IMG/VR virus record: IMGVR_UViG_3300030047_000014
Coordinates: 56,748-120,747 of that record
Strand: one strand, 5' to 3'
Source of the DNA: a virus
Length of the DNA: 64,000 nucleotides
The translations under genes and the position numbers were made by a program. Under the pieces are notes generated by a model. The model was not told the DNA's origin. It did no database searches and worked only from the letters and a program-made list of their open reading frames with translations. Below are positions 3,705 through 61,881 of the stretch, piece by piece (positions within the stretch are counted from its first letter, which is position 1; every line of letters starts with the position of its first letter).

Positions 3705-3715
3705 AAATCATTGTT

Positions 3716-3967
3716 ATGTCTGGATGCAATAGTGGAAGAAGTTATCAGAAAGTACTAGGTTCTGCCATAAGTAAAAGAGGTGGATGTGGTTGTAATGAGG
3801 ATCCATGTAAAGATACTTACCAGGGACCAAATCTACCCTGTACAGGCATAGAAACTTACACTTCTATGGAGGTAGTTATTCAGATGATTGATCAGAAGAT
3901 ATGTGAATTAACTGAATTGTTAAACACAATAACAACTACATCAACAACAACAACATTACCATTATGA
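3716..3967 (+). CDS. Small structural protein: Cys docking module plus poly-Thr tail
   Basis: ATG at 3716 is the likelier start; YQGPNLPCTGIET...IDQKIC then TTTSTTTTLPL. Confidence 0.65.
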   Translation: MSGCNSGRSYQKVLGSAISKRGGCGCNEDPCKDTYQGPNLPCTGIETYTSMEVVIQMIDQKICELTELLNTITTTSTTTTLPL

Positions 3968-4449
3968 GTGTTAAAATAACTCTTACAAATGTAGGTTCAA
4001 ATATAAGTCCTACTTTAGATATTTACTCTAATGCAACAGGTACTTGGGTATTCTTTAAAAATGTATCTGTTACAGATTTACTTGGAGGATATGTATTTAC
4101 TCCTCCTTTGAATGCAACTGGGTATCAAGTTAGAGATACAGGTGCGTGTGGAACTATTCTTGAATTATATTGTGAATATATTACAACCACTACCACTTAT
4201 AATCCTTCTTATACCACAACTACTACAACTACAGCAGCTCCTGTTTATTGGTATATTCTTAGTAAATGTATTCCTAATGGAACTGATTATTATGCAGGAC
4301 CATTTTATACTAACATGTACTCTATGGGGGATAGAGTAGAAGGTGCTACATCAACCTATTATGTTGTAATTGGTTCTTATACAACAGAGCCTGTTAATAG
4401 GGAGAAATTATCTGGAATTACTGGAACAGGCTATAGAGGCTGTCCATAA
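3964..4449 (+). CDS. Putative virion decoration protein with two poly-Thr tracts
   Basis: 161 aa; ITTTTTYNPSYTTTTTTTAAP linker between two small Cys-bounded domains. Confidence 0.6.
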   Translation: MSVKITLTNVGSNISPTLDIYSNATGTWVFFKNVSVTDLLGGYVFTPPLNATGYQVRDTGACGTILELYCEYITTTTTYNPSYTTTTTTTAAPVYWYILSKCIPNGTDYYAGPFYTNMYSMGDRVEGATSTYYVVIGSYTTEPVNREKLSGITGTGYRGCP

Positions 4450-6827: not shown

Positions 6828-9800
6828 ATGGCTACTTCAGAACAAGATAGTAATATCAAACAAGAGTTTAATACAGCTTCAGTTGGGTTAAACCAAGACC
6901 AATCTGCTAATCAGGTTAAAAAAGGTGCATTAACTTACGCCTTGAATGCTACTATTGAGAACTTTGATGCTAATTCTGTGTCTTATCAGAATGAGGGAGG
7001 TAATGAATTCTGCCTTAATTTCCCTGCTGATTTTGTTCTTATAGGCAAACATTTCATTCCTGAGAGAAATAAACATATATTCATGTTAGTTAATCCTGAA
7101 ACAGAAGAGAGTCAGATAGGATATATGGATAATACTGATTGTGTATATAGAACTTATGCAACTGGTGGGTGTTTGAATTTTAATGTAAACTATCCTATTC
7201 ACAAGATAGTTCATAAGATAACTAATTGCTCTACAGAGATTTACTGGGCAGACAGAAATGGTAGAAGATATATGGATCTTGATAATATTCCATATCTTCT
7301 TCAATCAGGGAGTACTTTATGTGATCCTAAATATGGTAAGGAATTAGATTGTAATCAACTTAAGTTACAGTCAAATTTCTCTATTCCTACTCTTGAGATT
7401 AAGGATGTTGTAAGTGGTGGAAATCTTATAGCAGGTACTGTTCAGTTTGGAATTCAATATTCTGATGCTAATGGTAATCCATATACATCTTATTATTCAA
7501 TTACTAATCCAACTTCTATTTCTGATCCTACCATAACAAGTATGAATTTTAATTATCCTGTTGGTAAATCAGTTATCGTTAATATATCTAATCTTGATTC
7601 AACTGGTCATTTTCAATACTTTAATCTTGTTGTTATTAAGACTATCAATGCTATAAGTACTCCAGAATTAGTTGGTACTTATTACATTGATAATACTCAA
7701 AAACAAGTAATTTATACTGGTCAGAATGTAGAAGCTATCAAACTCTCTATGGAAGAAGTATTTGAGAAATTTCCTACTTATGATATAGCTGAGGATGTAA
7801 CTACTGTCCAGGATGTTATTATATGGAGTGGTCTTACTTCTATTGATAGAATCAACTATCAGAGTATTGCTAATAAAATAAAGCTCTATTGGGAAACTTG
7901 GAGAATACCTTCTACTGAAAATTATGCTACAGAGTTAAATACTACTAATTTTAGATCCTATTTAAGAGATGAAGTATACCCATTTGAAGTAGTATTTCTA
8001 CTTGCTAATGGAAAACAGACAGATAGATTTCATATACCAGGCAGAGCATTAACTCCTGATGAAATTAATAAACCTGAGATATCTACTTTAAATGCTGATT
8101 TTGTAGGAACCCCTACATATTATGTAGATGATATTGGATTTTCTCCTTATTGGAAGATTTATAATACTTCTTCTGTATTAGGAACTTCTGAACAATTTAG
8201 TTCAGATCCAAAATATAAAGGATCTTATCAGTATGGTGAATTTGCTTATTGGGAATCAACTGAAGAGTATCCTTGTGATAAAGTTTTGTGGGGAGAGCTT
8301 GCAGGTAAAAAGATAAGACATCATAAGTTTCCAGATGTATCTGTATCTCCTATATTTGAATCAAAGACATTTACTAATGTAAATTCTATGGTAATGGGAA
8401 ATGATGCTATATTTCCTATTGGTGTAAAGATTGATGTTCAATATTTAAAATCCCTTATAAATAGTTCAGATCTAACAGATAGTCAGAAAAGTGACATAGT
8501 TGGATTTAAGATTGTGAGGGGAGACAGAAGCACAAATAAATCTGTAATAGCAAAAGGTATCTTAAGAAATGTAGGCATTTATGAGAGAGAAGATCAGAAA
8601 TTCTATTATCCTAACTATCCCTACAATGATCTAAATCAGGATCCATTTTTAACAAGTACTAATAATGCATTCTCACAGACATGTAATACCTACAATATAA
8701 ATATAAATCATCTTGAGCGTGATTCTTCTGGTGGTGCAGATTTTGCGGACATTCAGTATACTGATTGTAATACAAATAAACAGGCAGTAAAAAGATTCTA
8801 TTCAACTGATACATTTGAACTATGCTCAATTTCAAAACCCATCTTTTTGAATTCATCAGCAGGAGTAGTTAGTATAGCTACCTATGAAGAATGGAGAATT
8901 CAGATTAAGTTTGGTATAGGAACTGTTGGATGGGTAGATCCTGTCGATGGTTATAAAGAAATTCCTTTTGGTCCTGGTTATTCTTACTTGAATGTTGTAG
9001 TAGGAACAGGTGCACCTAAAGGTATCTCTGGTGCAGAAATATCTACTTTATATCTTGGTTTACATGCACCTTCCAGTATATGTAATAAGTATTCTGAGTT
9101 ACCTGCAATAAAGGATAATGAAACTCTTAAATATAGACAAGTATTTAATTCTCCAGAGACTTCTTTTGGTCAGCCTTTTCTTGGTGATACTCTTAAGTTA
9201 GAGAGTGTAATATTTGGAACAGGAAAAGCTCATTTTGTAGAGGTTAAGAATAATGCTAAGTATAAATTAATTACAGAACAAGCTCAAAGAAAAGCTCTGG
9301 ATAGCTCTAATAAACTGGGAGCTATTACTAGTGATTTCAATGCATCAGCAATGTTTGCAGCTTATCAGGCTTATCTTACTATTTATATAAATGGTATAAC
9401 AAGAAAGAACTTTGCTTACTCTTTTAATTCTATAGCAGATTATAATTATATGACAACTATTCCTAATGAATTAGGAATTAAACAAAGGAAATTAGATATT
9501 AAACGTTATCTAATACCTGGAGTACAATCTGTTAATGATGAGTTTACTATTAATAACTATGAGAGGGAATCTTCCATATATCTAAGAACAGATTTGGATA
9601 AGACTCCTTTACCTCATCCAGATAAAACACCTAATATGTTATTTGGTGATATAAGTCTGGTTTCGGATAAATCCAGATTTACTGTATCTGGAATAGGTAA
9701 TTGTAATAAACCAGGGAAGGAAGAACCAATTCAAGTTGTTTCCTATTATGCATCTCTTAAGAATGATATATTAAATCAGTGGGGACAGATATATTCTTAT

Positions 9801-12257
9801 GAGGCAATTGATACAGGGTTTCAAAGGATATTTAATAATCCTACTGATCAACCTGATGTTATATTTGGTGGGGATACATTTATTAATAGATTTGCTTTTA
9901 AAACTAAGTTACCATTCTTTATTGATAATAGAGTAGGAGCTCCTGATGATAGTGATATATTTTATGATGAAATAGGTAATATAGCTTATCCTAAATATTG
10001 GCACTCAGCTAGATCTATTCTGAAGGATTATATGTCTTCTGGAGGTTTATTATCTAATATTATCTCTTATAAAGCACATAATTTTGATTGTCCTAATGAT
10101 GTTGTTAATACTGTTATTGAAGCTATTCCTATTGGTTCAGAGACTTCTATTACAACAACAACTACAACAACTACATTAAAACCAGATGTTCCTGTTGATT
10201 CAGAGTTGACTTACTATGATGGGTATTTCTATTTATTTGCTTATGGTACACCTAATTTCTATTGTGAGAGTTCATATAATTTAGATCTTAGACAAGCTTT
10301 TAATAATAAAGAAGGTGATTTTTATCCTCATGTAAGTACTGGAATTCCTGATGAATGGGTACAGGAATCTTTTGTGTCTATTGCTATGGATAACACATAC
10401 TATTATAATACTACTTATTCTAAGCAAAACAAAGAGAATACTTTTACTAGTCTTCCTCCAGATTGGGAGGAAAAGTTGTGCTATACTCATTTTCCTTTTA
10501 GAAGTATATATTCTAATAAACAGGATACAAATGCAACTACTCATGTAAATAATTGGCTTGTATATTCTCCATTATCATATTTTGATTTTCCTCAGACTAA
10601 TGGTAAATTAATATCTTTAGATGGTATTCAGAATAAAGCTATATTAGCCAGGTTTGAGAATAAGAGTTTATTATATAATAATCTCTTAACTGTAAATACA
10701 AGTAATCCTCAAGCTGCCTATTTTGGTAATCCTGATATGTTTAAAGGTGCACCTCCTATTGATTTTGCAGAAACGGATCTTGGATATGTAGGAAGTCAGC
10801 ATAAGATGTTATTAAAGATACCTCAGGGTCAAGTAACTATAGATGCAAAAAGAGGTCAGATATTTCTAATTGAAGGAACTCAGATTTCTGAATTATCTAC
10901 ATTTGGCTCTGGAATGAATAGATTCTTTACAGATCATTTAGCATTTGAGATTCTAAGATATTATCCTGATGTAGATATAGATAATGCCTATAATTCTATA
11001 GGATTACATGGTGTATATGATTCTAAATTTGATAGACTTATAATTACTAAATTAGACTATATTCCTCTTAATAAAGAAATTAAGTATGATAGTTCTACTT
11101 TTAAATTTTATATAAATAAAAAGATAGGAAATGAGACTATAAAAGAGACAGTATTATTAACAGATACCGATTATTTCTGTAATAAATCCTGGACTTTATC
11201 CTATAACATGAATACTAGATCCTGGATTAGTTTTCATAGTTATATCCCTAATTTCTATATTGCAGAGAATAACTTCTTTTATTCAGGTATAAAAGGATGT
11301 TGTGATGAATTTGATGCTGTAGCAGTAGTTTCTGTTCCAGAACCAAGTACTTCAACAACTACTTCTACAACTACTATTGTATGTTCTTTGAATGCTGAAG
11401 TTATACCTATTACAACTACAACAACATCAAGTACTTCTACCACAACAACTACTAGTACAACTGCTTATATTACAACTACAACTACAACTACAGCACACCT
11501 ATGTTGGACTTGCCCAGAAGGTTATGTACCAATAATTAATGGATGTTATACAGAGGAAAGTATAACTCCTAATCCTCCTTCTGCAGCAGAAATCTTAGCT
11601 AATAAGACTTATGGTGGTTATGGAAAATCTGGAGGTAAATTCTATAGATTAGAAGGTGCTGACTATATTGAAGATGATACTATTCCTATTCTTACTACAG
11701 ATGTAGTATGGAAGAATACATCAGAGAATCTTACTGATGGGGTATTAAATAGATGTGGTGTCTGGTCTGCATTAGATGCTACTCCAGGACAATACATAGG
11801 TTTTGGTAGAGAAGTAGTAGCTCCAGTTGGTAAGATTTACTATGTAGGACTTGGTGCAGATAATTATATGTCTCTGGAAATTAATAACATATTAGTTAAG
11901 CAATTCCCATCTGGAGATACTATAAATGATCATTATGAGAGTTGGCATTTATTCCCTGTATATTTAAATGCAGGATCCAATCTTATTCATATGATTGGTT
12001 ATAATGATCTTGCCTTAGCTTGTATGGGAGCTGAAATTTATGATGCAACTCTATCTCAATTACAGAATGTTACTTCTGTAGCTGAATTGGATGCTCTAAC
12101 TATATTCTCTACTAAATCTTTAATAGGATCTTATGTAGAAGAAGGAAACTTTGGAACTGGATTTACATGTCCAGATGGCTATACTCTAGTTAATAGAGAT
12201 GGTGTTCTTACATGTGATAGGACAATTTATACAGATTGTGACGGAAATACTATATAA
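6828..12257 (+). CDS. Tail stabilization (muzzle) protein, N-terminal part, with poly-Thr linkers and an appended jelly-roll domain
   Basis: RSYLRDEVYPF, IRHHKFP, GGDTFINRF, GYVGSQH and SWTLSY...WISFHSYIP motifs of crAss-like tail stabilization proteins. Confidence 0.75.
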   Translation: MATSEQDSNIKQEFNTASVGLNQDQSANQVKKGALTYALNATIENFDANSVSYQNEGGNEFCLNFPADFVLIGKHFIPERNKHIFMLVNPETEESQIGYMDNTDCVYRTYATGGCLNFNVNYPIHKIVHKITNCSTEIYWADRNGRRYMDLDNIPYLLQSGSTLCDPKYGKELDCNQLKLQSNFSIPTLEIKDVVSGGNLIAGTVQFGIQYSDANGNPYTSYYSITNPTSISDPTITSMNFNYPVGKSVIVNISNLDSTGHFQYFNLVVIKTINAISTPELVGTYYIDNTQKQVIYTGQNVEAIKLSMEEVFEKFPTYDIAEDVTTVQDVIIWSGLTSIDRINYQSIANKIKLYWETWRIPSTENYATELNTTNFRSYLRDEVYPFEVVFLLANGKQTDRFHIPGRALTPDEINKPEISTLNADFVGTPTYYVDDIGFSPYWKIYNTSSVLGTSEQFSSDPKYKGSYQYGEFAYWESTEEYPCDKVLWGELAGKKIRHHKFPDVSVSPIFESKTFTNVNSMVMGNDAIFPIGVKIDVQYLKSLINSSDLTDSQKSDIVGFKIVRGDRSTNKSVIAKGILRNVGIYEREDQKFYYPNYPYNDLNQDPFLTSTNNAFSQTCNTYNININHLERDSSGGADFADIQYTDCNTNKQAVKRFYSTDTFELCSISKPIFLNSSAGVVSIATYEEWRIQIKFGIGTVGWVDPVDGYKEIPFGPGYSYLNVVVGTGAPKGISGAEISTLYLGLHAPSSICNKYSELPAIKDNETLKYRQVFNSPETSFGQPFLGDTLKLESVIFGTGKAHFVEVKNNAKYKLITEQAQRKALDSSNKLGAITSDFNASAMFAAYQAYLTIYINGITRKNFAYSFNSIADYNYMTTIPNELGIKQRKLDIKRYLIPGVQSVNDEFTINNYERESSIYLRTDLDKTPLPHPDKTPNMLFGDISLVSDKSRFTVSGIGNCNKPGKEEPIQVVSYYASLKNDILNQWGQIYSYEAIDTGFQRIFNNPTDQPDVIFGGDTFINRFAFKTKLPFFIDNRVGAPDDSDIFYDEIGNIAYPKYWHSARSILKDYMSSGGLLSNIISYKAHNFDCPNDVVNTVIEAIPIGSETSITTTTTTTTLKPDVPVDSELTYYDGYFYLFAYGTPNFYCESSYNLDLRQAFNNKEGDFYPHVSTGIPDEWVQESFVSIAMDNTYYYNTTYSKQNKENTFTSLPPDWEEKLCYTHFPFRSIYSNKQDTNATTHVNNWLVYSPLSYFDFPQTNGKLISLDGIQNKAILARFENKSLLYNNLLTVNTSNPQAAYFGNPDMFKGAPPIDFAETDLGYVGSQHKMLLKIPQGQVTIDAKRGQIFLIEGTQISELSTFGSGMNRFFTDHLAFEILRYYPDVDIDNAYNSIGLHGVYDSKFDRLIITKLDYIPLNKEIKYDSSTFKFYINKKIGNETIKETVLLTDTDYFCNKSWTLSYNMNTRSWISFHSYIPNFYIAENNFFYSGIKGCCDEFDAVAVVSVPEPSTSTTTSTTTIVCSLNAEVIPITTTTTSSTSTTTTTSTTAYITTTTTTTAHLCWTCPEGYVPIINGCYTEESITPNPPSAAEILANKTYGGYGKSGGKFYRLEGADYIEDDTIPILTTDVVWKNTSENLTDGVLNRCGVWSALDATPGQYIGFGREVVAPVGKIYYVGLGADNYMSLEINNILVKQFPSGDTINDHYESWHLFPVYLNAGSNLIHMIGYNDLALACMGAEIYDATLSQLQNVTSVAELDALTIFSTKSLIGSYVEEGNFGTGFTCPDGYTLVNRDGVLTCDRTIYTDCDGNTI

Positions 12258-12259
12258 TC

Positions 12260-14377
12260 ATGGGTCAAGTAAAATATCAAATAATAAGTGGGGCTCCTAA
12301 TTTTACTGTTAGTCTATCTCCTAAGCTTGTACCAGATCAGGTACAAAGTTCTCCAGGTATATACTTATTTGAGGATGTACCTATGGGAACTTATATTCTG
12401 ACTATTGTAGATGCTAATCTTTGTAAGTTTACTGCATCTGTAGATGTAGATATTTATCCTTGTATTCTTGAAGGTAAAATATTCTGCGGTGATGATTGTA
12501 CTATTACAGGGATTATAGATTGTAACTTTATTATTGATACAACTACCACAACTACAACATATTCGGGTCTATGCACTACTTGTCCTGAGGGTTATACTGC
12601 TACAGTAGATTCTTGTTATATTGAAGATATAATTTCTCCTTATAGTCCAACTAATCCTCAAACTCTCTTTGTAAAAAGTAATAAGAGATATGGTACAACT
12701 GGTACAATAGTATTTCAACCTGGATGGAATTATGATGGAAGTGGTAGTACATATAATGCTTATACAACAGGTAATTTCTGGATTAATCCTATGGTTGATT
12801 CTATTGGTGGTACAAATACAGATGGTATTATGAATAAGAATGCTGTTTGGTCTGGAGTTACTTTAGATGGACAAACAGTAGGATTTCCTATATGTATTGA
12901 TATCGCTCAGGAGAAAACTTATTTAGTAGGACTTGGATGTGATAATTATGCAGAAATAAAAATTGATGGGGTTTCTGTATTAATGCAGGACTATAATGCA
13001 TTATATACTATCTATGCTGATAATGGTTGGGATATTCCTTCCACTAAAGAAAGTACATTTAGACTTTGGTTTATATATCCTATTACACTTACTGCAGGAA
13101 AGCATATAATTGAACTTATAGGGCATAATGATACTAATGTTGCAGCAGTTGGACTAGATATATATGATATGTCTGAGAGTGCTTTAATGGCTTGTAATAG
13201 CTATGATGATATGGGTTCTGGATTATTATTTAGTACAAAAGACGAAGTTGGTAAACTAGTTAAGATAGGTAATGAAGGTCAAGGATATAGTTGTCCAGAA
13301 GGTTATGTTTTAGGATATTGTGATGATTATCCTATGTGTTATAAAATTGAGTATATACCTTGTAGTAGTCAGCCTCTTACTACTTCAACAACTACTACAG
13401 ATTGTATGCGTCCTACAGGATTATCCTCTGATGCTTTGCAATATAGAATAATGAATGATAGTGGTATAACTTATGATTGTTATGCTACACTTGATCTTGC
13501 AAATCAGGGTATAACAGATTTTATTATAACTGAAGAAAATACAACACAAATAATAGAATATACAAGTATAGCAGTGGGAGAGAAACTATATTATGATTTT
13601 GGAACAAATTGTGATGTAATGTTTGATGGATACTTTGCAGTTGTTAATACTCTATATGATACTACACCACAAATAGTTCATGTGATTAATGGAATAATTA
13701 CAGAGATATTTGATTATGCTCCTATTATTCAAAAATGCTATGGACTACTATATAATTGGTGGGTTGCTTCTTATAATACAGGTGGTGCTTCAATAGCTCC
13801 TATTGGATGGCATATTCCTACAGATACTGAGTGGAATACACTAGCAACTACTCTTGGAGGATTATCTATAGCGGGTGCTTCTATGAAAGAAGCAGGAACA
13901 GTTAATTGGGTAGCTCCTAATACTGGTGCAACTAATAGTAGTGGATTTACAGCATTACCAATTGGAGATAGAGACTGGATGGGAGGATTTGGTAATCAAG
14001 GATATTATGCAACTTGGTGGTCTTCCGCAGAAGCTTCTCCAGGAAATGGTAAAGACTATCATGTTGAGTTAAATTATAACTATCTTGGGTGGACAGGTCA
14101 AACTCCTAATATGGGTGCAGGTCTTAGGGCTATTAAAAATGATAATGTTATGTCTTCTGTAGAAGTAGTTGATTATGATGGTAATGTATATACACCAATT
14201 CAGATAGGATCTCAGATATGGACTCTTGAGAATCTTGTAGCTACACATTTTAGTAATGGTGTTGCTATTCCTAATTTATCAGATAGTACAGCTTGGAGTA
14301 CAACTACTGCTTTTGCATTATCTGCATATGATAATAACTGGATTGGTAATGCTTGTATTCCTGAACCACCTATTTAA
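12260..14377 (+). CDS. Modular tail-tip/adhesin protein: Ig-like start, poly-Thr, PA14-like domain, permuted Fib_succ_major (FISUMP) domain
   Basis: YGLLYNW...APIGWHIPTDTEW...NSSGFTALP...WWSS and DYDGNVY...IGSQIWTLENL motifs. Confidence 0.7.
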   Translation: MGQVKYQIISGAPNFTVSLSPKLVPDQVQSSPGIYLFEDVPMGTYILTIVDANLCKFTASVDVDIYPCILEGKIFCGDDCTITGIIDCNFIIDTTTTTTTYSGLCTTCPEGYTATVDSCYIEDIISPYSPTNPQTLFVKSNKRYGTTGTIVFQPGWNYDGSGSTYNAYTTGNFWINPMVDSIGGTNTDGIMNKNAVWSGVTLDGQTVGFPICIDIAQEKTYLVGLGCDNYAEIKIDGVSVLMQDYNALYTIYADNGWDIPSTKESTFRLWFIYPITLTAGKHIIELIGHNDTNVAAVGLDIYDMSESALMACNSYDDMGSGLLFSTKDEVGKLVKIGNEGQGYSCPEGYVLGYCDDYPMCYKIEYIPCSSQPLTTSTTTTDCMRPTGLSSDALQYRIMNDSGITYDCYATLDLANQGITDFIITEENTTQIIEYTSIAVGEKLYYDFGTNCDVMFDGYFAVVNTLYDTTPQIVHVINGIITEIFDYAPIIQKCYGLLYNWWVASYNTGGASIAPIGWHIPTDTEWNTLATTLGGLSIAGASMKEAGTVNWVAPNTGATNSSGFTALPIGDRDWMGGFGNQGYYATWWSSAEASPGNGKDYHVELNYNYLGWTGQTPNMGAGLRAIKNDNVMSSVEVVDYDGNVYTPIQIGSQIWTLENLVATHFSNGVAIPNLSDSTAWSTTTAFALSAYDNNWIGNACIPEPPI

Positions 14378-43113: not shown

Positions 43114-43122
43114 ATATATATC

Positions 43123-46555: not shown

Positions 46556-48709
46556 ATGAGTACTTATTATGTGTCTACAACTGGAAGTGATAGTAACCCA
46601 GGATCTTTAGGATATCCCTGGGCTTCATTCTCACATGCAAATGCTCAAGTAGCTCCTGGTGATACAGTTATATTTGAAGATGGTGTATATACTGCAGGTG
46701 TTGATTATTTTGCTTTATTAAATGTAAGTGGGACAGCAGGTGCTTACATTACTTATAAAGCAAGAAATATTGGTGGTGCAATATTGGATGGTCAGAGTAA
46801 TTATACTAATATGGGTTTAAGTATATGGGCTAATTATCTTAATATAGAAGGATTTGAAATTAGAAACTTAGCAGGTACAGCAATAGCAACAGGTGAAGCA
46901 CATAATCATGTAAATTTTAGATATTTATGGATACACCATATTGGTAGAATTTGTACTACTACCTCATTTGGATTAGATGGAGTTTATTTACATCAAGCAT
47001 CTTATTTCTTTTTTGATAGATGTAAATTTAATGATATAGGTAGACTTAGAGTAGCTGATGGTTGTCCTAGTGATACTGGAACTGGGTTAGATCAAGGATT
47101 ATATTTAGATGGATGCTCTTATATTACTGCTCAAAATTGTATATTTTATCATATTGGAAATGGTTTTGCTCTTCAAATTTATTCAAGTGGTAGTCTTACA
47201 TCAGATCATATTTCTTTTATAAATAATACATGTAACAATAATAACTTTGCACATTATGCAGGGCATATAATTTTATGGAGTAATATGAATAATGTCCTTA
47301 TTGTGAATAATATATTAAAAGGACATGGACAATATGCTATGCAGATCTATCAAGGAGAAGGATATGTTTATAGTGCTAATATAATTGCCAACAATATATA
47401 CTATGGAGGAAATAATATCTTCTATGTTGGAACAACAACAGGTATTACTTTATCAAGTAACACAAATCAAGATCCTAGATTTGTTAATGAGGCTTCTTAT
47501 AATTATAATCTATTATCAGCATCTCCTGCAAGAGATGCAGGATATGCAACAGGTCTTACATATGACTATGCTAATAATCCCAGAGTAGGTACAATGGATA
47601 TTGGTGCTTATGAGTATGTTTCTGGTGTTACAACTACAACTACTACAACTACTACACCAACTACAACCACCACAACTACACATCCTACCACTACAACAAC
47701 AACCACACATGCCACAACTACGACTACTACCACCAGACCTATAACCACCACAACTACTTCTACTACAGTAGCTCTAACAACTACGACTACTTCTACTACT
47801 CGTACAACTACTACAACCACTACTCAACCACCTACTACTACGACTACTACTACTCGTCCTATTACAACAACAACTACTAGTACTACTGTAGCCCCAACAA
47901 CCACTACAACAACTACCAAACCTATTACAACTACTACGACTACTACAACAGTAGCCCCTACCACTACTACGACTACAACTCATTCAACTACTACAACTAC
48001 AACTACACATCCTCCAACAACTACTACTACCACTACTACTCAACCACCAACGACTACTAGTACAACTACTACGGTTGCACCTACTATAACTACTACTTCT
48101 ACAAGTACTACACAACCTCCTACAACCACTACATCAACTACCACTGTAGCCCCAACAACCACTACATCGACTTCTAGTACAACTACTAGTACTACTACTA
48201 CTATTCCTCCTACAACAACTACCTCTACCACTAGGAGAATAACTACTACCACTACTACAAGTACAACAGTATATCAATCAACATATTGGAATGTAGAACT
48301 TAGTGAGGATGTATATAAGAATAATTGTCCTGTACACTTTAAATCAACAATGGAAACTTATACTGTTCATGCTCATACATATAGTTCTAATAGAAGTCAG
48401 GAGGATGCAGATAATAAAGCATTAAAAGAAATTGCAAGGAATAAACAAGCCTATGCAAATAAAAATTGCAGTTGTATTCCTAAACCGTTGTATTATAATT
48501 TTAGAGTACAGGATAGTGCAGTAAAAACAGATTGTCCTGAAGGTTATATTGGATCAACAGTATTATATGTTGTTCCTGCAGGAAAATATAGTTCTACAAT
48601 TAGCCAGGCTGAAGTTGATACTGAGGCAATAAATGACCTCAATACCAACAAACAGACCTATGCTAAAAACTGTGGAAAGTGTAGAAAGCCAAGGGTAAAG
48701 AAATGTTAG
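46556..48709 (+). CDS. Mucin-like protein: right-handed beta-helix, ~210-aa Thr/Pro stalk, two DUF5977-like repeats
   Basis: YYVSTTGSDSNPGS...PW, SPARDAG...DIGAYEY; Thr-rich tract; two YxN...KxxC...YxVxAxxYSSxxSQxxxDxxA repeats. Confidence 0.8.
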   Translation: MSTYYVSTTGSDSNPGSLGYPWASFSHANAQVAPGDTVIFEDGVYTAGVDYFALLNVSGTAGAYITYKARNIGGAILDGQSNYTNMGLSIWANYLNIEGFEIRNLAGTAIATGEAHNHVNFRYLWIHHIGRICTTTSFGLDGVYLHQASYFFFDRCKFNDIGRLRVADGCPSDTGTGLDQGLYLDGCSYITAQNCIFYHIGNGFALQIYSSGSLTSDHISFINNTCNNNNFAHYAGHIILWSNMNNVLIVNNILKGHGQYAMQIYQGEGYVYSANIIANNIYYGGNNIFYVGTTTGITLSSNTNQDPRFVNEASYNYNLLSASPARDAGYATGLTYDYANNPRVGTMDIGAYEYVSGVTTTTTTTTTPTTTTTTTHPTTTTTTTHATTTTTTTRPITTTTTSTTVALTTTTTSTTRTTTTTTTQPPTTTTTTTRPITTTTTSTTVAPTTTTTTTKPITTTTTTTTVAPTTTTTTTHSTTTTTTTHPPTTTTTTTTQPPTTTSTTTTVAPTITTTSTSTTQPPTTTTSTTTVAPTTTTSTSSTTTSTTTTIPPTTTTSTTRRITTTTTTSTTVYQSTYWNVELSEDVYKNNCPVHFKSTMETYTVHAHTYSSNRSQEDADNKALKEIARNKQAYANKNCSCIPKPLYYNFRVQDSAVKTDCPEGYIGSTVLYVVPAGKYSSTISQAEVDTEAINDLNTNKQTYAKNCGKCRKPRVKKC
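47629..48268 (+). repeat. Imperfect ACN-codon repeat encoding the poly-Thr stalk
   Basis: Units of about 6-9 Thr separated by P, HP, RPI, VAP or QPP; all four Thr codons are used. Confidence 0.95.
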
Positions 48710-51690
48710 ATACCAAATATTTTTATCTGTTCTATAACCATTTCTGCTGTGATTGATTTTTGACATTCAAATTGTCTTGGTGTATCTTTATAAATGGGAC
48801 ACCAATTCCAATCTCCTTTGTCAAATTTGAAGTTACGATTGTTCCAACAACCATGACATACATTCTTATTAGAAATCCTAATACAATTAGACTGGAACTC
48901 ATGAAGTGTTTCTGTAAAATTAGCTATCATTACAACTGAAGTATCTAATGCCCAGGCTAACCAACTAAGACCACTTGATAAACCAATAAAATAGTCACTA
49001 TGATTTATTACTCTTATAGTATTCTCTAAAGAATTATCAGATAATTGATCTACATTATTTAATGTGTTCTCTTCTTTAGAAACATTAATTACTACATACT
49101 CCATTTCTATCAGATAATCAACCAATTTCTGCCATTCTTCCTGTCTCCAATATTTACATCCTGCTGTAGAATCTGGAGCTATAGTAATGTATTTCTTATT
49201 GCAAGGAGAACTACTTATTTCAAAATGAATTCTTGGTACTATCTCTTCATATTTTAGTCCTAGAATATTAGTTGCAGTCTTTTGAAGAGGAATTGTATTA
49301 GGAATTTCTGGTTCCTTGTCTTTATCATAGAACCAACCTAGTCTATATAAAGCATATAAATCATATACAACAGTACCTGGTTCTACAAACTGTAGTTCTG
49401 GATATGCTTTTTGAAATAAGAAATTCTTAAATGTAGATACTACTACCTGACATTTATGTTTTTCCTGAAATTTTAATACATAAGGCATCCAGGCTATTGT
49501 ATCTCCTAGAGATGAGCTCTCAAATACTATGAATACTTTTCTATTCTTTAAAGAGAATATATTCTCATAGATAAGATTTTTATCTTGAAACACCTGTGTT
49601 GTCCAAGATGTAAAGTAACTACGACTAAGTTTTATCCAGTGATTTGTTCCTATAGTCTCTTCATATTGACAGATTCCTTTCTCATCAAGAAATTTTACTA
49701 GAAAATTAGCTTCTTCATTACCGGTTATTTCTATAAAAGGTTGATCTACAAAATGTTGTGTTATTTGTACATTCTTTTTAACTTTTTTTTGTGGTTTAAT
49801 TTCTTTATTCATAATTTCATTATAAAAGTTTAAATGTTTTTCTGCAAATTCTTTAGAAGTATTATTTGTAGGAATCTCATAAAATGCTTTAACATATCTT
49901 ATATCAGTAGAAGCTAAGTCATAGATATAAGAGTTAAACATTCCTTCATACTGTAACAGATTTCTAGCCATAATAGGAAGACCATAAGAGATAGCCTCTC
50001 TTAGCACAATAGGATTACATTCATTTTTAGAATTAAACATGAAGATATCACATGCAACAAAGAATCTATCAGTATCGTTTCTTTCTCCCCACACGGTAAC
50101 ATTAGGAGGAAGATCTTGCATAAGAGGTTCCCAATATTCTTTAAAGTTAGGAGCTTGATTTCCTACAAAATGAAAACGCATATCTGGATGATTTTTAGCT
50201 ATTAATATTCCCTCTGCTTGATTCTTTCCTGGAGTCCATAAACCTACATTAAGAACGTGGATTCTCTGTTGTTCCATTCCAAGGGAATTTCTAATATATC
50301 TCTTAGACCATTCCTTAACTGAAGGAATCCACTTATCAATAGGATACTCTATTGACTCTTTATATGAAGGAAGATCTTTAAACGTTCTTAAATGATATGG
50401 AGTACAGAAAGCATAAGCATCTGGATGAAATACTTTAGTTTTAGGATCAAAACTTATATCATGACAGATCTCTACAATTCTATAAGATCTATCATTAGAA
50501 TATAACTGATTGATCATTTCTCTATCTAATCTCTCAGACATTTCATCTATATGAATTATATCTGGTTTATTATCTTTAATAATTCCAAATAGGTCAAGTT
50601 TATTTTCTCCTAAAGTATAAAACTTATCCACAATTTTCTTTATTTTATCTCTTTGTACCACATAATCAAGACTATAGTTTTGATACTCTACTACAGATAT
50701 TTCTACTTTTGTAAAGTTTTGTAAACATTCTATTCTTTTTAATAAGAATTGAGGCATACCTCCAGTTGATAAATGAGGAGCCAAAAACATTATTTTTAAC
50801 TTTTTTTGTTTTAAATACTCAATCATTTTTTCCATTATTATAGGATCTTTCTCTCCGTGTATAAATAACAATTCTTGTGATGATTTAGGAATCTTAAACC
50901 AGGGTCTAATTTCTTTACCCCAATTATCTTGTTCATAAATTTCAGGAAGATCTTTTAAACTAGCATTTGTATAAATATAAGGAAGTCCACAGAAAAATTC
51001 ATACTTCCATAATAATACATTAGCAATAGTCTCCTCATGGTAAGGAGCATATAAAGTATGATTCTCTATTACTTTAGGGTTAGAACACATATTATACCAT
51101 GTATTTAAGAATGGTATTGTCTCTTGTCCTGCTACAAAGAAACCTGTTTGTCTATATGTTTGTCTAACATATTGATTTACATTAAATAAATCACATGCAG
51201 GAGCTTCTAATGTGGTTGACATATCTTCCCTGGTATCTGCACCACCTCTTCCATCAATATGAAGGTAGTCATAAATACCCTCTACAAAATGAGGAATTCT
51301 ACTCCACTCAGAATAATAATCAAATATATTATCCACATATTGAGTAGCAACACAATCTGCATCTATAAAAGCAACTGTTTCTGCATAATTCTCTAGACAG
51401 TCCTTTACAATTAAAGGACGTTGAATCATCATCTTATAAATATCTGGATCCGCTCTATCAATAAACTTCTCTTGTTTTTTTATATTAGGAGCATCACATT
51501 CCCAGCCAAAAGTAGTTGCTCCTAACATAGGAATATGACAATTAATCATATATACATAGATGGGAAGTTTGCTAAAGGTTCTTAGAGAATTTACACAAGC
51601 CTGAACTGTTTCATGATAACTTGCTGTTGCATAAAGGATGTAAGCTCTTTTATCTTTTTCAATTGATGGTAATAAAGTATCTGTCTGCAT
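48706..51690 (-). CDS. Three-domain glycosyltransferase: GT-A, GT4-like GT-B and TibC/AAH-like protein O-heptosyltransferase domain
   Basis: FIDADC (DxD); APHLSTGGMPQ and ECNPIVLREAISYG; SSSLGDTIAWMPY...FIGLSSGLSWLAWA...CHGCWN...WCP...FECQKSIT. Confidence 0.8.
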   Translation of the reverse strand: MQTDTLLPSIEKDKRAYILYATASYHETVQACVNSLRTFSKLPIYVYMINCHIPMLGATTFGWECDAPNIKKQEKFIDRADPDIYKMMIQRPLIVKDCLENYAETVAFIDADCVATQYVDNIFDYYSEWSRIPHFVEGIYDYLHIDGRGGADTREDMSTTLEAPACDLFNVNQYVRQTYRQTGFFVAGQETIPFLNTWYNMCSNPKVIENHTLYAPYHEETIANVLLWKYEFFCGLPYIYTNASLKDLPEIYEQDNWGKEIRPWFKIPKSSQELLFIHGEKDPIIMEKMIEYLKQKKLKIMFLAPHLSTGGMPQFLLKRIECLQNFTKVEISVVEYQNYSLDYVVQRDKIKKIVDKFYTLGENKLDLFGIIKDNKPDIIHIDEMSERLDREMINQLYSNDRSYRIVEICHDISFDPKTKVFHPDAYAFCTPYHLRTFKDLPSYKESIEYPIDKWIPSVKEWSKRYIRNSLGMEQQRIHVLNVGLWTPGKNQAEGILIAKNHPDMRFHFVGNQAPNFKEYWEPLMQDLPPNVTVWGERNDTDRFFVACDIFMFNSKNECNPIVLREAISYGLPIMARNLLQYEGMFNSYIYDLASTDIRYVKAFYEIPTNNTSKEFAEKHLNFYNEIMNKEIKPQKKVKKNVQITQHFVDQPFIEITGNEEANFLVKFLDEKGICQYEETIGTNHWIKLSRSYFTSWTTQVFQDKNLIYENIFSLKNRKVFIVFESSSLGDTIAWMPYVLKFQEKHKCQVVVSTFKNFLFQKAYPELQFVEPGTVVYDLYALYRLGWFYDKDKEPEIPNTIPLQKTATNILGLKYEEIVPRIHFEISSSPCNKKYITIAPDSTAGCKYWRQEEWQKLVDYLIEMEYVVINVSKEENTLNNVDQLSDNSLENTIRVINHSDYFIGLSSGLSWLAWALDTSVVMIANFTETLHEFQSNCIRISNKNVCHGCWNNRNFKFDKGDWNWCPIYKDTPRQFECQKSITAEMVIEQIKIFGI

Positions 51691-54360: not shown

Positions 54361-55377
54361 ATGAAGGAATTAAAATTTATTTGCGCCCAACCTGATAATG
54401 CCTATTATACCTGGCAAGTTAATCTATGGTTGGAAAGTTTAAAAGCAATAGGTCATTCAGATAAAGCTATTGTTTTAGTATTTACTCCAATGGGAAGAGA
54501 ACAGAATAAGAATTGGAAGCAAGTAATGGATTTGTACCCAGAAACAGAATTTAATTTTATCATTGATGAGGATGAAGTAAGCTTACTATTAGGAATATAT
54601 ATTCCTCTAATAAGACCCTATAGTTTGTGGAGATATTTCAGAGATCATCCTGATATGAAAGATAAAGGAGTATTCTATTGTGATTCAGATATTTTATTTA
54701 TGCCTGGGTTTAATGTTGATCAGTATCTTCAGGATGATGTTTGTTATTTATCTGATACTAATGGTTATATAAATGCTACTTACTTTGATAGTAAGATTAA
54801 GGATGTAATACCTGATAGATTGGAAGAGTATAAGAAGAGAGATATCCTACAAGAGCTATCAAATCTTATTGGAATAAATAGAGAAATTTGTGAAGCAAAT
54901 AATTTACATTCTGGAGGAGCTCAGTATTTTTTAAAGAATATTGATGCTTCTTTTTGGAGTAAAGTACAAGGAGATTGTCTTATTATACGTACCTTCTTAG
55001 GTAGAGTTAATTCAGAGTTCTTTGAAGATGAAAGTAAAGGATTTCAGTCTTGGTGTGCAGATATGTGGGCTATTTTATGGAATTTATGGTTAAGAAATCA
55101 AGAGACAAAATGTATTCCTGAGATGGAATTTGCCTGGGCAACAGATCCTATTGTAAAATTAGATACTCTTAAGATATTTCATAATGCAGGAGTAGCTGAG
55201 ACAGTACAGAATGGAATTCCCTTCTTTTATAAGGGTAAGTATCATACAGGAGATGATCCCACAAAAGATCCTTTTCTAGATGATATTTTAAATCATGAGG
55301 AAAGTAAAAAATTCTGTACATGGTATTATACAGCAAAGATTAAAGAATTGAGTAACAAGTATAAACTTAATTATTAA
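54361..55377 (+). CDS. GT-A glycosyltransferase resembling HPAT/peptidyl-serine galactosyltransferase (GT95/GT96-like)
   Basis: YYTWQ...YIPLIRPYSL...YCDSDILF...WCADMWA...IFH motif order; TATCTTTG -7 box at 54333. Confidence 0.6.
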   Translation: MKELKFICAQPDNAYYTWQVNLWLESLKAIGHSDKAIVLVFTPMGREQNKNWKQVMDLYPETEFNFIIDEDEVSLLLGIYIPLIRPYSLWRYFRDHPDMKDKGVFYCDSDILFMPGFNVDQYLQDDVCYLSDTNGYINATYFDSKIKDVIPDRLEEYKKRDILQELSNLIGINREICEANNLHSGGAQYFLKNIDASFWSKVQGDCLIIRTFLGRVNSEFFEDESKGFQSWCADMWAILWNLWLRNQETKCIPEMEFAWATDPIVKLDTLKIFHNAGVAETVQNGIPFFYKGKYHTGDDPTKDPFLDDILNHEESKKFCTWYYTAKIKELSNKYKLNY

Positions 55378-56087
55378 TGAAAGAATATAATGGTATAATT
55401 AATATTAGTAAGTTAGATGATGATTATATTATATATAAAATGTATTCTTCAAATCAGAATGATAAATCAATTTATATAGGGGTTACTTCAAACTATAAAG
55501 AAAGGATTTATAAACATTCTATGAATAGATATTATAAACGATATAGTAATAAACCTTTATACATTTGGATAAATAATGTATTAGATAAACAAAAAGAAAA
55601 AGTTATCTTTGAGATTATAAAGAAAGAATTAAGTGAAGAAATAGCTTTTAATAAAGAAGTGGAGTATATTCAAAAATATAAAGATTTAGATTATTTAGTA
55701 TTAAATATTTCAGAAGGAGGAAGAGGAAATACAGGAAGTATTCCTTGGAATAAAGGAAAAATAATGAATAATGAATGGATTAAAATGATGTCTACGGCTC
55801 ATATAGGATCATTTGGAGATATGACAGATAAACATCATACACAAGAAACTAAAGATATCATTTCTTTAAAAAGTCACAAAAGAAAAGAAAGAGGATGGAG
55901 AAATCCAAGAAAAAATAAAGTTTATAAATATACTTTAGATGGTAAACTTATTATAGTTTACTCATGTTTGGAAGAAGCTGCATTTAAGGAAAATACTAAT
56001 TCTACAAGTATTGGAGAATGGTGTAGAGGAACAAAGAAACCAAGAAATAATTTTACTTGGTCTTATAAAGAGATTATAAACAATTAA
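55377..56087 (+). mobile_element. Free-standing GIY-YIG homing endonuclease with NUMOD3/NUMOD1-like domains
   Basis: IIYKM...IYIGVT...RIYKH...KEVEYI...LNISEGG; PWNKG; KHHTQETKDIIS; C-terminal HTH. Confidence 0.8.
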
Positions 56088-56098
56088 ATTTAAACAAA

Positions 56099-56278
56099 AT
56101 GACAACTATTAAAAAAAGAGATTTAAAAGGCTTTGTTCGTTTTGACGCACAAGGAAGACTTATTGCAGGCAGCCTAATTATGAGGAGAAAAGCTCCTAAA
56201 GTTGGTAAGTGGCAGGAAATAACAGCATATCGTTGCTGTAACTTTACTACTACAACTACCACAACTACAGCACATTAA
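56099..56278 (+). CDS. 59-aa protein with C-terminal poly-Thr tag (not in ORF track)
   Basis: MTTIKKRDLKGFVRFDAQGRLIAGSLIMRRKAPKVGKWQEITAYRCCNFTTTTTTTTAH. Confidence 0.75.
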   Translation: MTTIKKRDLKGFVRFDAQGRLIAGSLIMRRKAPKVGKWQEITAYRCCNFTTTTTTTTAH

Positions 56279-56289
56279 ATCTATATATC

Positions 56290-56703
56290 ATGAATTTGTT
56301 TCCTGAAAATATGCTTAATAGTTCTGGAGAGGTTCTCTCTCTGGATACAATAAAGGCTAAACTCTCCTATTTTGAGTTACAACTGCATGAATTACATTGG
56401 CAGACTACCTCATTAGCAGAGCATTTAGCTCTTGGTGATGCATATGACCTTATCTTTAAACTAAAAGACGAGATTGTAGAGAAGATAATGGGATATACAG
56501 GAGTAAGAACAAAGGCTATGCCTGTAGATACCATTAAGAATTATGCTCCAGGTGTACCTGATATAACAATAAGAGAAATCTTAATGTTTGCAAAGCAATT
56601 AGAGAGTTTTGGTAGTATTAATAATATGCCAGATATTGAGAATATTGCTCAGAGTTTATCAGGAGATATATCACAAATTAAATACAGATTAACTCTTTCG
56701 TAA
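56290..56703 (+). CDS. Ferritin/Dps-like four-helix protein
   Basis: LHELHWQT...EHLALGDAYD...DEIVE...KYRLTLS. Confidence 0.7.
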   Translation: MNLFPENMLNSSGEVLSLDTIKAKLSYFELQLHELHWQTTSLAEHLALGDAYDLIFKLKDEIVEKIMGYTGVRTKAMPVDTIKNYAPGVPDITIREILMFAKQLESFGSINNMPDIENIAQSLSGDISQIKYRLTLS

Positions 56704-60441: not shown

Positions 60442-60477
60442 AAGAACCTCTCCTTAAGCAAGAGAGGTTCTTTTTTT
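60442..60477. terminator. Intrinsic terminator at the junction of convergent gene blocks
   Basis: AAGAACCTCTC-9 nt-GAGAGGTTCTT followed by a T run. Confidence 0.85.
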
Positions 60478-61138
60478 ATAGTCCTAAGAAGTTTTTATAA
60501 GAAGAAGAACTTGAGGCATGTTCAATATAGTATTTAAACTCCTCATTTTTTAAATATTCTTCTTTTGTTAATTCCCAGGGATAATGTCTGGCTACATATG
60601 GAAATGTTGCAGAGGATCCTCCAATAAAATAATCTCTTCTTTTATATAGAGCAAATGTAGTATCAATTGGTACTTCTGTATATACATCTATCTTTACGTC
60701 AGAGTTAACCCATCTGCTCTTCTCATACCCTTGCATATGATCATAGTAGGGGGATTCAGGAGTAACTCTCTGCCAGTCTAAGCCAAGTCCTATTTTAGAG
60801 ATATGCCATTGTCCTAAAGCAACTATTCTATTAAAAAGGTAATCTAATGTATCAGAAGGAGTATTCTCTAATCCTAGATCAGAATCAGATGTTACATAGT
60901 AATCTGATTTTAAAGCTTCCACACATCCAGAATCCCAAGGTGCTGTATGACCCATATTCTTATTTAGTTTTAATACTGTACAAGGATTTGTTTCATACCA
61001 CTCCAGAAGAGGTTCATATGTGGAATCATTATCTAATATAATGATTTCTCCTACATTATTATATGTCTTAATCTTCTCTATCATAGCTTTAGTCCAGGTA
61101 AGAAGATCTCTATTATTAATGATTACAGGTATTTTCAT
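60476..61138 (-). CDS. GT2-like glycosyltransferase
   Basis: VIINNRD...IIILDNDST...NMGH...YVTSDSDL...IDTTFALY. Confidence 0.75.
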   Translation of the reverse strand: MKIPVIINNRDLLTWTKAMIEKIKTYNNVGEIIILDNDSTYEPLLEWYETNPCTVLKLNKNMGHTAPWDSGCVEALKSDYYVTSDSDLGLENTPSDTLDYLFNRIVALGQWHISKIGLGLDWQRVTPESPYYDHMQGYEKSRWVNSDVKIDVYTEVPIDTTFALYKRRDYFIGGSSATFPYVARHYPWELTKEEYLKNEEFKYYIEHASSSSSYKNFLGL

Positions 61139-61701
61139 TTCTGAATGATTAAAAGTTTATCATCACAAAGGATTTGATACTTTTTAAAATAAGACATTGC
61201 ACCTTCTGCAGTAATTCCTTGATGGATATAAAACATTTCTCTGAATAACTTGCCTATTTGTGCTTGTGGGGCGTGAAGATCCTCTATGAAGTAATATCCC
61301 CCTTCTTTTAATAAAGGATAAAGAGCTTTAAAAGAAGCTACAATATCATCATAGTTATGACTTCCATCATCTACAATAAAATCATATCTGAAATCTCTGA
61401 ATTCTGCATTTATATATGCAGGATCTGCAGCATTCCCAATATTAACTCTTAGGTTCTTATTCTCCCAGGTAACAAAGTTTAATACTCCTGCATCAATATC
61501 AATACCAGTAATATCTAATTCAGGATTATATTCATACCACATTCTAAGAGAATCTCCATGCCATATCCCTATTTCAAAAAGATCATATTTACCTGTCTCA
61601 GGAATAATCTTTCCATATTCTTCTGTATAACCATGAGCTTCATAAGCTAATGTGCCTTTGTCACAGTTATATTTATTTGCTAATTCTGTAAGTCTATTCA
61701 T
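61135..61701 (-). CDS. Class I SAM O-methyltransferase (MycE/TylE-like sugar O-methyltransferase motifs)
   Basis: DKG...HGYT...FEIGI...GDSLRMW...GIDI...DFIVDDGSH...GGYYFIEDL. Confidence 0.75.
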   Translation of the reverse strand: MNRLTELANKYNCDKGTLAYEAHGYTEEYGKIIPETGKYDLFEIGIWHGDSLRMWYEYNPELDITGIDIDAGVLNFVTWENKNLRVNIGNAADPAYINAEFRDFRYDFIVDDGSHNYDDIVASFKALYPLLKEGGYYFIEDLHAPQAQIGKLFREMFYIHQGITAEGAMSYFKKYQILCDDKLLIIQK

Positions 61702-61880
61702 CTACTGTAATTATCATCAATTATTTTTCTAATCTCTGTAATTCCTTCAATAATTTTTTTGAAATAAGCATCTAAGATTCTAGGATCATCATAGAATATA
61801 TGTCCATAATCCTGAATAAAATAATAGAAATCTATTATTTCTCCCATTTCTTGTTTTTTTATTTCATTTATATCAGCCAT
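61698..61880 (-). CDS. Hypothetical protein
   Basis: 60 aa, tightly coupled within the - strand operon. Confidence 0.5.
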   Translation of the reverse strand: MADINEIKKQEMGEIIDFYYFIQDYGHIFYDDPRILDAYFKKIIEGITEIRKIIDDNYSR

Positions 61881-61881
61881 A

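Follow-up and report, generated by a model that had tools for sequence, protein, structure and literature searches.

A phage glycosyltransferase family linked to poly-threonine tracts is a candidate for the O-glycosylation of virion proteins in crAss-like and other phages

Do phages encode a dedicated enzyme that decorates poly-threonine (poly-Thr) tracts of their own particle proteins with sugars? This question is raised by an ATG-start open reading frame (ORF; 54361..55377, + strand, 338 residues in the ORF listing) in the right-hand 64 kb of the 120,747-bp IMG/VR virus record IMGVR_UViG_3300030047_000014, the stretch of DNA analysed here and referred to as the window. A sequence-only reading of the window had proposed that the encoded protein is a phage homologue of the plant hydroxyproline arabinosyltransferase (HPAT) and peptidyl-serine galactosyltransferase (SGT1), and the best candidate for the enzyme that attaches the first sugar to poly-Thr. 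Judged by its genes, the source virus is a crAss-like phage of Bacteroidota type: crAss tail-ring proteins are encoded within the window, and a crAss-type major capsid gene (PF23898, E 3.8e-26) is located just beyond its edge. Our analysis suggests, with a probability of about 0.78, that the ORF encodes a soluble cytoplasmic GT-A glycosyltransferase with a DxD motif which glycosylates threonine residues in poly-Thr tags and linkers of particle proteins.

The motifs on which the earlier proposal was based, YYTWQ at residue 15, YIPLIRPY at 80, DSDILF at 108, WCADMWA at 231 and IFH at 272, each occur once and in the order claimed. When the window protein was aligned with 40 representatives of 50% identity clusters (out of 150 listed), all single-domain, near full length and down to 30% identical, the alignment showed invariant columns at Y80, D108, D110, Y136, G186, Q229, F257, H274, K291 and Y323 and at least 90% conservation at P11, R85, Y106, W231, D234 and I272. 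The motifs are not chance occurrences, because they are conserved across this 41-sequence alignment, and no variation of the DxD or the histidine occurred in a second set, of 49 further sequences. The family comprises 1386 proteins at E ≤ 0.001 in a 90%-clustered collection and 756 representative clusters at 50% identity. The sole library match of the window protein was the unannotated phrog_4417 (E 2.8e-54); hmmscan yielded no Pfam-A family at E ≤ 1, no NCBIfam model matched, and searches of PDB sequences with phmmer and the 41-sequence profile gave chance-level matches only, for example to Imp3 and TAL-effector repeats. A description of the family or of phage poly-Thr tags was not found in a literature search that did not extend to subscription journals and supplements.

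The AlphaFold 2 (AF2) model of the protein, calculated with the 41-sequence alignment as input, reached a mean predicted local distance difference test (pLDDT) score of 97.1 and a predicted template modelling (pTM) score of 0.93. Comparison with 48,161 PDB representatives using VIA-align placed LgtC (Z 14.3), glycogenin (14.2 and 14.1), AgtA (14.1), WbbM (13.7), UGGT (13.4) and GlyE (13.0) at the top. In total, 107 representatives reached Z ≥ 8, and the 18 top-listed rows were all glycosyltransferases (18/18), with GT8-type enzymes leading at Z 13-14; GT6 enzymes, the PBCV-1 capsid glycosyltransferase (Z 10.9) and many other GT-A enzymes followed at lower ranks. Foldseek returned 248 matches at E ≤ 0.001, among them WbbM and glycogenin at E of about 1e-6, and in a search of viral models giant-virus GT8-like enzymes came next after two members of the family itself. 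D108-S-D110 directly follows the strand 103-107. The assignment as a DxD-containing GT-A glycosyltransferase, made earlier from the letters alone, is thus borne out by the modelled fold, the structural matches and the invariant DxD, and by this model the window protein is an enzyme with a single Rossmann-like alpha/beta/alpha domain, closest to retaining GT8-type glycosyltransferases. At the sequence level, the window protein had no match to the Glyco_transf_8 model (CAZy GT8) at E ≤ 1, and scans of sets of 41, 75 and 49 members of the family yielded no GT8 match either.

Two properties follow from the model. GT8, GT24, GT77 and GT6 are retaining CAZy families, and the nearest folds are, by CAZy family, presumably all retaining enzymes; therefore, the anomeric configuration is predicted to be retained and the first sugar to be alpha-linked. 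The model begins with the catalytic-domain strand 4-11 and homologues align from residue 1-6, leaving no N-terminal extension, which therefore indicates a soluble protein without a membrane anchor. According to the sequence-only reading, best matches to GT-A families with non-peptide acceptors, combined with a lack of peptide activity, would have counted against it. The nearest folds are of both kinds: LgtC acts on lipo-oligosaccharide and WbbM on O-antigen, whereas glycogenin, AgtA, UGGT and GlyE work on proteins or protein-bound glycans. Fusions of the domain were surveyed in 75 of the 150 listed representatives, namely 47 of at least 400 residues and 28 more distant single-domain proteins. 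Partners included GT2 (5), GT6 (2), Glyco_transf_7C (2), PF11397, a GT29 sialyltransferase, O-FucT and several methyltransferases, with Methyltransf_24 being fused to the glycosyltransferase domain in P0132 and P0174. GT2 and Methyltransf_24 proteins are encoded by separate minus-strand genes at the right end of the window.

The proposed kinship with the plant enzymes fared less well. HPAT (GT95) and SGT1 (GT96) of plants and algae prime glycans on repetitive peptides, and the motif order ascribed to them is indeed present in the window protein, but the HPAT family model PF23452 (gathering cut-off 23.9 bits) matched neither the window protein, nor the window genome, nor a member of the sets of 41, 75 and 49 relatives examined. 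Colinear matches below the cut-off appeared on 4 of 10 members of the clade to which a jumbo-phage paralogue belongs, the best being P0272 with 17.1 bits (E 0.0038) and the other three having E 0.05-0.12; in one member, residues 6-226 aligned with model positions 6-218. No other Pfam family recurs colinearly on a clade of the glycosyltransferase family. A scan of four viral records gave one match below the cut-off (16.4 bits), on a paralogue in a 371-kb phage; the first of the two tandem paralogues there accounts for the best HPAT match overall (17.1 bits). None of the 82 listed relatives of this jumbo-phage paralogue carries a precomputed Pfam domain. Five bacterial genomes gave a single 8.7-bit match (E 2) located elsewhere, and 401 Bacteroidota genomes gave none. 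PF23452 occurs in 22 of the 30 best named clusters that neighbour the protein in the ESM Atlas; in the two such clusters shown, 10% and 58% of the members have it. No GT95 or GT96 structure was among the fold-search matches. Kinship to HPAT and SGT1 is thus a weak lead. HPAT is a type II membrane-anchored enzyme of the Golgi, whereas the window protein leaves no room for an N-terminal membrane anchor, and its predicted acceptor is threonine as opposed to hydroxyproline (HPAT) or serine (SGT1).

The link to poly-Thr proteins proved tighter than the sequence-only reading had claimed, within the enzyme's own clade as well as in co-varying tail-tube and capsid genes and at distant loci. In the window, a 59-residue micro-protein with a C-terminal T8 tag is encoded shortly downstream of the glycosyltransferase gene (Table 1). 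In 80 IMG/VR loci (L005-L084) whose glycosyltransferases are 63-69% identical to that of the window, the micro-protein family was present in 77, and two of the three loci without a match end within 800 bp of the glycosyltransferase gene. The micro-protein gene starts at most 100 bp downstream of the glycosyltransferase gene in 71 of the 80 loci and 200-747 bp downstream in 6 more. A run of at least five threonine or serine residues follows a conserved CC motif in 107 of 152 micro-protein copies, and a poly-Thr copy is lacking in just one of the 77 loci; the untagged copies, and some tagged ones, carry large variable C-terminal domains behind a common 48-residue N-terminal module. This module (KRDLKAYVRFDGSGR...PKVGKW.EI.AYECC) heads tandem paralogues, some of which end in nothing more than a poly-Thr tag and others in large domains such as repeats several hundred residues long; it resembles a docking platform to which interchangeable decorations are attached. 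In the AF2 model of the window micro-protein, three strands were predicted at a pLDDT of about 90 and the tail at about 56; a fold search retrieved only its own homologue from Virus NIOZ-UU157 (E 8e-6) and nothing above Z 2.3 from the PDB. A complex prediction for the glycosyltransferase (41 rows) and the micro-protein (about 45 rows), run without controls, gave scores of 0.01 and 0.02, the threshold being 0.32, and thus speaks neither for binding nor against it.

The glycosyltransferase gene lies on the virion (+) strand, as had been stated, and had further been described as one endonuclease insertion away from the micro-protein gene. This description is correct, because homologues of the intervening GIY-YIG gene (51-61% identical) occupy the same junction, 2-5 bp after the glycosyltransferase gene, in 6 of the 80 loci (L014, L017, L030, L033, L034 and L035). 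The 71 loci with the micro-protein gene at most 100 bp away have no room for an endonuclease gene and carry the two genes in direct succession. Such an occurrence at one fixed junction would be predicted for a homing element that targets a single site. Further selfish elements were detected by a Pfam scan of 103 ORFs of the whole genome, which in addition to the GIY-YIG gene revealed two HNH_3 domains, a LAGLIDADG domain, an intein splicing domain, NUMOD4 and endonuclease VII. A DUF5856/Dps-like protein of 137 residues (56290-56703, + strand; PHROG 'starvation-inducible regulator') is encoded near the glycosyltransferase gene in 74 of the 80 loci.

A tblastn search detected the glycosyltransferase family in 77 of 50,697 phage records, mostly from phages of Lactobacillus, Enterococcus, Staphylococcus and Lactococcus. 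The gene of Enterococcus phage phiFL1A is preceded by that of a major tail protein ending in a run of about 25 Thr/Ser residues; in Lactococcus phage 1706, it follows that of a tail protein ending ...TTTTTTTTTTHHD; and in Lactobacillus phage PLE3, it comes after the gene of a 125-residue protein with five poly-Thr units, while the capsid and tail-tube proteins of this phage both have the C-terminus ...TTTTTTTSK. The 125-residue protein, gp08 (L003:4620-4997), is annotated as 'major tail protein'; its C-terminal half consists of the five units, T6-T12 in length and spaced by VKP, VAP or EAPP, and it is more likely a glycan-carrying decoration protein. A Chryseobacterium phage encodes a protein with a poly-Thr linker upstream of the glycosyltransferase gene, and in a 371-kb viral record (L166:74-3318) a 469-residue T22 protein is followed by the two tandem glycosyltransferase paralogues mentioned above. 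In phiFL1A, PLE3 and 1706, the glycosyltransferase gene is embedded in a head or tail module. Genes of the GT2 or GT1 families were not found in phiFL1A and 1706, and the annotations of phiFL1A and PLE3 include no glycosyltransferase; therefore, the enzyme studied here is the only recognisable phage glycosyltransferase there.

Surveys queried with the substrate proteins instead of the enzyme revealed that tag and enzyme co-vary. Among 27 IMG/VR loci with homologues of the phiFL1A tail-tube protein, 12 encode a poly-Thr-tailed protein, and in all 12 the glycosyltransferase gene begins 0-7 bp further downstream; at the remaining 15 loci, the protein is tail-less and the glycosyltransferase gene is absent within about 6 kb. 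Homologues of the PLE3 capsid protein were found at 75 loci, of which 70 could be evaluated after exclusion of three with an open-ended capsid gene and two with less than 2.5 kb of downstream sequence. Here, 37 capsids are poly-Thr-tailed and 37/37 are followed by the glycosyltransferase gene at a distance of 69-571 bp, while 33 loci have neither. Some of these capsids are 94-99% identical and differ only in the poly-Thr tail. In trees of the tail-less proteins, from which a start-of-alignment filter dropped one row per set, enzyme and tag each change state four times per set and always together. More distant viral relatives were represented by 47 loci with enzymes 30-43% identical to P0212, two of which were inspected by eye and both had the poly-Thr ORF at position -1. 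A poly-Thr gene was found just upstream in 35 of the 47. Counted by position relative to the glycosyltransferase gene, poly-Thr ORFs occurred at -1 in 27/44, at -2 in 10/42 and at -3 in 7/36 cases, compared to 2/307 at +1 to +8 and 0/52 at -5 to -8.

Bacterial relatives provide what is, by gene content, an independent context for a Thr-rich peptide acceptor. The domain is encoded on 26 bacterial contigs (L246-L271), mostly of Sphingobacterium, Pedobacter, Chryseobacterium and Chitinophaga, and forms the N-terminus of a protein of 439-591 residues in four of five loci inspected. By the criterion applied to the viral loci, a poly-Thr ORF is located near the domain in 6 of the 26. In 11 of the 26, the domain is encoded beside one or two ORFs of 66-100 residues with a double-glycine leader (e.g. 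L254:4169-4471, L252:1994-2230 and L248:3357-3557), in which a stretch rich in Thr, Ser, Gly and Pro directly follows the leader and precedes a Cys-rich body; this pattern occurred at 0 of 127 viral loci. A C39-peptidase ATP-binding cassette (ABC) exporter is encoded inside three of four loci tested and a LanC-like protein inside two of the four. The small peptides are candidates for bacteriocin-like peptides that carry sugars. Searches of PDB sequences with one of the bacterial glycosyltransferase fusions and its neighbour retrieved no informative match.

On these grounds we propose that, late in infection, the enzyme would transfer a sugar from a nucleotide sugar to the threonine hydroxyls of poly-Thr tags before or during assembly, by metal-dependent DxD catalysis and with an alpha-linked first sugar. 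Its acceptors would be several large virion proteins, the beta-helix protein with its mucin-like stalk and the adjoining 59-residue micro-protein. The glycan may then be extended and capped by the gene products of 60476-63417, namely two or three GT2 enzymes and the methyltransferase, so that the virion would acquire a mucin-like coat of sugars. The pairing of enzyme and tag owes its strength not to the raw counts but to its recurrence in unrelated lineages and protein classes, i.e. micro-protein, capsid, tail tube, fibre-like protein and jumbo phage. A wider interpretation is tentative and, in our view, somewhat doubtful: the family as a whole may be the initiating peptidyl-threonine O-glycosyltransferase of a portable poly-Thr cassette and a viral and bacterial sister group of GT95/GT96. 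Phages of Bacteroidota and Firmicutes would then append T7-8 units that could render any particle protein mucin-like, and Bacteroidota might use the same enzyme on the Thr-rich cores of bacteriocin-like peptides with double-glycine leaders.

Several points weigh against the proposed glycosylation of poly-Thr by this enzyme. The case is built wholly on sequence, models and gene context, and the top fold matches include LgtC and WbbM, which do not act on proteins. The invariant H274 and Q229 may occupy the positions of the third metal-ligand histidine and the catalytic-face Gln/Asp of GT8 enzymes, but this assignment is an inference. No poly-Thr ORF is found near the glycosyltransferase gene at 12 of the 47 distant viral loci, nor at 20 of the 26 bacterial ones, and poly-Thr is therefore not the sole context of the family. 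The co-variation tables overstate independence, as supported branches hold only two independent contrasts for the tail tube and one for the capsid; a sign test cannot reach significance because there are only these two and one independent pairs. Finally, a protein O-glycosyltransferase resembling TibC is encoded beside the gene of the mucin-like beta-helix protein and could initiate glycosylation here.

This last point bears on the strongest competing explanation, which is nevertheless unlikely in our judgement: that the enzyme extends glycans instead of initiating them, the first sugar being added by the TibC-like domain of the 994-residue protein in this phage and by a host enzyme in the small Firmicute phages. 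Residues 684-985 of the 994-residue protein match TibC (PDB 4rap) with E 3.7e-47, GT4- and GT9-type domains are present in the same protein, and its gene is arranged tail-to-tail with the mucin-like gene so that the stop codons overlap. AgtA, GlyE and UGGT, all close folds, act on sugars already attached to proteins, and the family is often fused to other glycosyltransferase domains. However, the TibC-like gene occurs in merely 29 of the 54 related loci with at least 6 kb of upstream sequence, and phiFL1A, PLE3 and 1706 seem to lack a second phage enzyme of the GT2 or GT1 type. Tag and enzyme are moreover gained and lost as one cassette, which is simplest if the naked tag is recognised, and glycogenin, an equally close fold, glycosylates a protein side chain directly. 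The earlier designation as best candidate for the priming enzyme is plausible: it is favoured by the cassette and the status as sole recognisable glycosyltransferase in small phages, and disfavoured by the TibC-like protein in the same phage. We regard the chances that the enzyme adds the first sugar as about even.

Much less probable is that the enzyme acts on something other than protein, for example a lipid carrier, a polysaccharide on the host surface or phage DNA with modified bases, and that its nearness to poly-Thr genes results from hitch-hiking in a mobile cassette. An excerpt of PMC12619734 presents DNA glucosylation and serotype conversion as the best-known activities of phage glycosyltransferases, and both the rank of LgtC and WbbM among the folds and the 12 viral and 20 bacterial loci without poly-Thr neighbours fit this explanation. 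Against it, the gene is located in head and tail modules and not in replication or lysogeny modules, and its presence goes together with that of a short tag at the C-terminus of capsids that are otherwise nearly identical. Furthermore, base-hypermodification genes are not annotated in phiFL1A or PLE3, and the bacterial context consists of bacteriocin-like peptide clusters, not polysaccharide clusters. DNA glucosylation and serotype conversion were rejected on these grounds. An inactive glycosyltransferase fold serving as chaperone or assembly factor for poly-Thr-tailed proteins was rejected as scarcely conceivable, since no result of the analysis favours it and sequences down to 30% identity show no change in DxD, H274, Q229 and K291 and hardly any in other pocket-type residues, with DxD and His invariant again in the second set of 49, a pattern typical of active enzymes.

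The glycosylation of poly-Thr by the studied enzyme thus remains the preferred interpretation, and the genes in the window that may take part in it are compiled in Table 1. Poly-Thr runs in the window genome are confined to + strand ORFs of the virion module. The stalk of the 717-residue beta-helix protein is mucin-like, with T7-8 units spaced by xAP or xPP (20 runs by a stricter count). A homologue of the 247-residue GT2 enzyme was found in 32 of the 45 related loci with at least 9 kb of downstream sequence. Two collagen-like tail-fibre proteins with Gly-X-Ser/Thr triplets are encoded at 41656-45588 (+ strand), and the second of them ends in a domain of the endosialidase-chaperone (Peptidase_S74) type.

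Table 1. Glycosyltransferase gene, putative acceptors and putative glycan-tailoring genes in the window.
Feature	Coordinates	Strand	Remarks
379-residue virion-module protein	331..1470	+	ends ...ITTTTTTTVAPTTTTTTSHA; candidate acceptor
96-residue ORF	3677..3967	+	ends ...TITTTSTTTTLPL; candidate acceptor
161-residue protein	3964..4449	+	internal T5 and T7 tract; candidate acceptor
1809-residue virion protein	6828..12257	+	four poly-Thr/Ser linkers; candidate acceptor
705-residue protein	12260..14377	+	two poly-Thr linkers, Fib_succ_major domain; candidate acceptor
717-residue beta-helix protein	46556..48709	+	Beta_helix 1.3e-12, DUF5977 repeats 8.6e-38; likely acceptor
994-residue multi-domain glycosyltransferase	48706..51690	-	Glycos_transf_1 1e-8 (GT4-like middle), Glyco_transf_9 1.1e-9 (C-terminus)
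Glycosyltransferase, 338 residues	54361..55377	+	predicted soluble GT-A fold, invariant D108-x-D110 and H274, unnamed family phrog_4417
GIY-YIG homing endonuclease	55377..56087	+	PF01541 E 2.7e-5; between glycosyltransferase and micro-protein genes
59-residue micro-protein	56099..56278	+	ends ...CCNFTTTTTTTTAH; beta domain (residues 10-41) and disordered C-terminal T8 tag; likely acceptor
220-residue protein, weak GT2	60476..61138	-	PF00535 E 0.0069, under cut-off; putative glycan-tailoring cluster
Methyltransferase	61135..61701	-	Methyltransf_24; weak rhamnosyl O-methyltransferase/CmcI match
GT2 glycosyltransferase, 193 residues	61882..62463	-	PF00535 E 1.2e-8
GT2 glycosyltransferase, 247 residues	62674..63417	-	PF00535 E 1.6e-9

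If our interpretation is true, sugar-coated virions would be common well beyond the mycobacteriophages and could be predicted from sequence as the combination of tag and enzyme. The family with its acceptor tag spans crAss-like, Enterococcus, Lactobacillus, Lactococcus, Staphylococcus and jumbo phages, and the question is accessible in cultured phages such as phiFL1A, PLE3 and 1706. It bears on phage therapy through antibody recognition, on how gut phages adhere to mucus, and on glyco-engineering, as the system consists of one soluble enzyme and a short tag; under the wider interpretation outlined above, the pair would be a minimal transplantable O-glycosylation system. From the bacterial relatives, Bacteroidota may possess a hitherto unrecognised class of bacteriocin-like peptides that are glycosylated.

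The glycosylation of phage virions as such is known, whereas this enzyme family and an explicit acceptor tag appear to be undescribed in the literature searched. Freeman et al. (2023, Cell Host Microbe) reportedly described the glycosylation of mycobacteriophage virions by phage-encoded glycosyltransferases. Glycosylated mycobacteriophage particles have been shown experimentally, with glycans that shield against anti-phage responses, according to section 12 of PMC12619734, and an excerpt of the same source locates these glycans at the C-termini of capsid and tail-tube subunits. It is at such capsid and tail-tube C-termini that the neighbours of our enzyme's relatives carry poly-Thr tags, and a phage-encoded glycosyltransferase in or beside the structural module is likewise found in the window, phiFL1A, PLE3 and 1706. 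The systems differ in that the hosts here are of Bacteroidota type and Firmicutes, that the acceptor would be an explicit and portable poly-Thr tag, and that the present system is known from its genes alone.

With GT8 and allied enzymes (LgtC, PDB 1g9r; glycogenin, 1zcu and 3u2t; the Skp1 glycan galactosyltransferase AgtA, 6mw8; the catalytic domain of UGGT, 6fsn; and GlyE, 5gvv), the modelled enzyme shares the fold over 211-249 residues at a root-mean-square deviation of 3.5-4.2 Å, together with the DxD and the later conserved histidine. It differs from them in sequence (8-12% identity), in helical insertions at about residues 134-180 and 196-244 of the model, and in its predicted poly-Thr acceptor. 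The TibC/AAH autotransporter heptosyltransferases are cytoplasmic protein O-glycosyltransferases with a close homologue in the neighbouring 994-residue protein (48706-51690), which is unrelated to the studied enzyme in fold and family and may be its partner or its rival. The serine-rich repeat adhesins of Gram-positive bacteria offer a further parallel: dedicated enzymes, whose genes adjoin that of the substrate, glycosylate its low-complexity Ser/Thr tract in the cytoplasm, with priming by GtfA/B and subsequent action of GlyE and others. There, the primer is a GT-B enzyme and the substrates are secreted bacterial adhesins, as opposed to the virion proteins considered here, while GlyE is one of the closest folds to the phage enzyme (Z 13.0).

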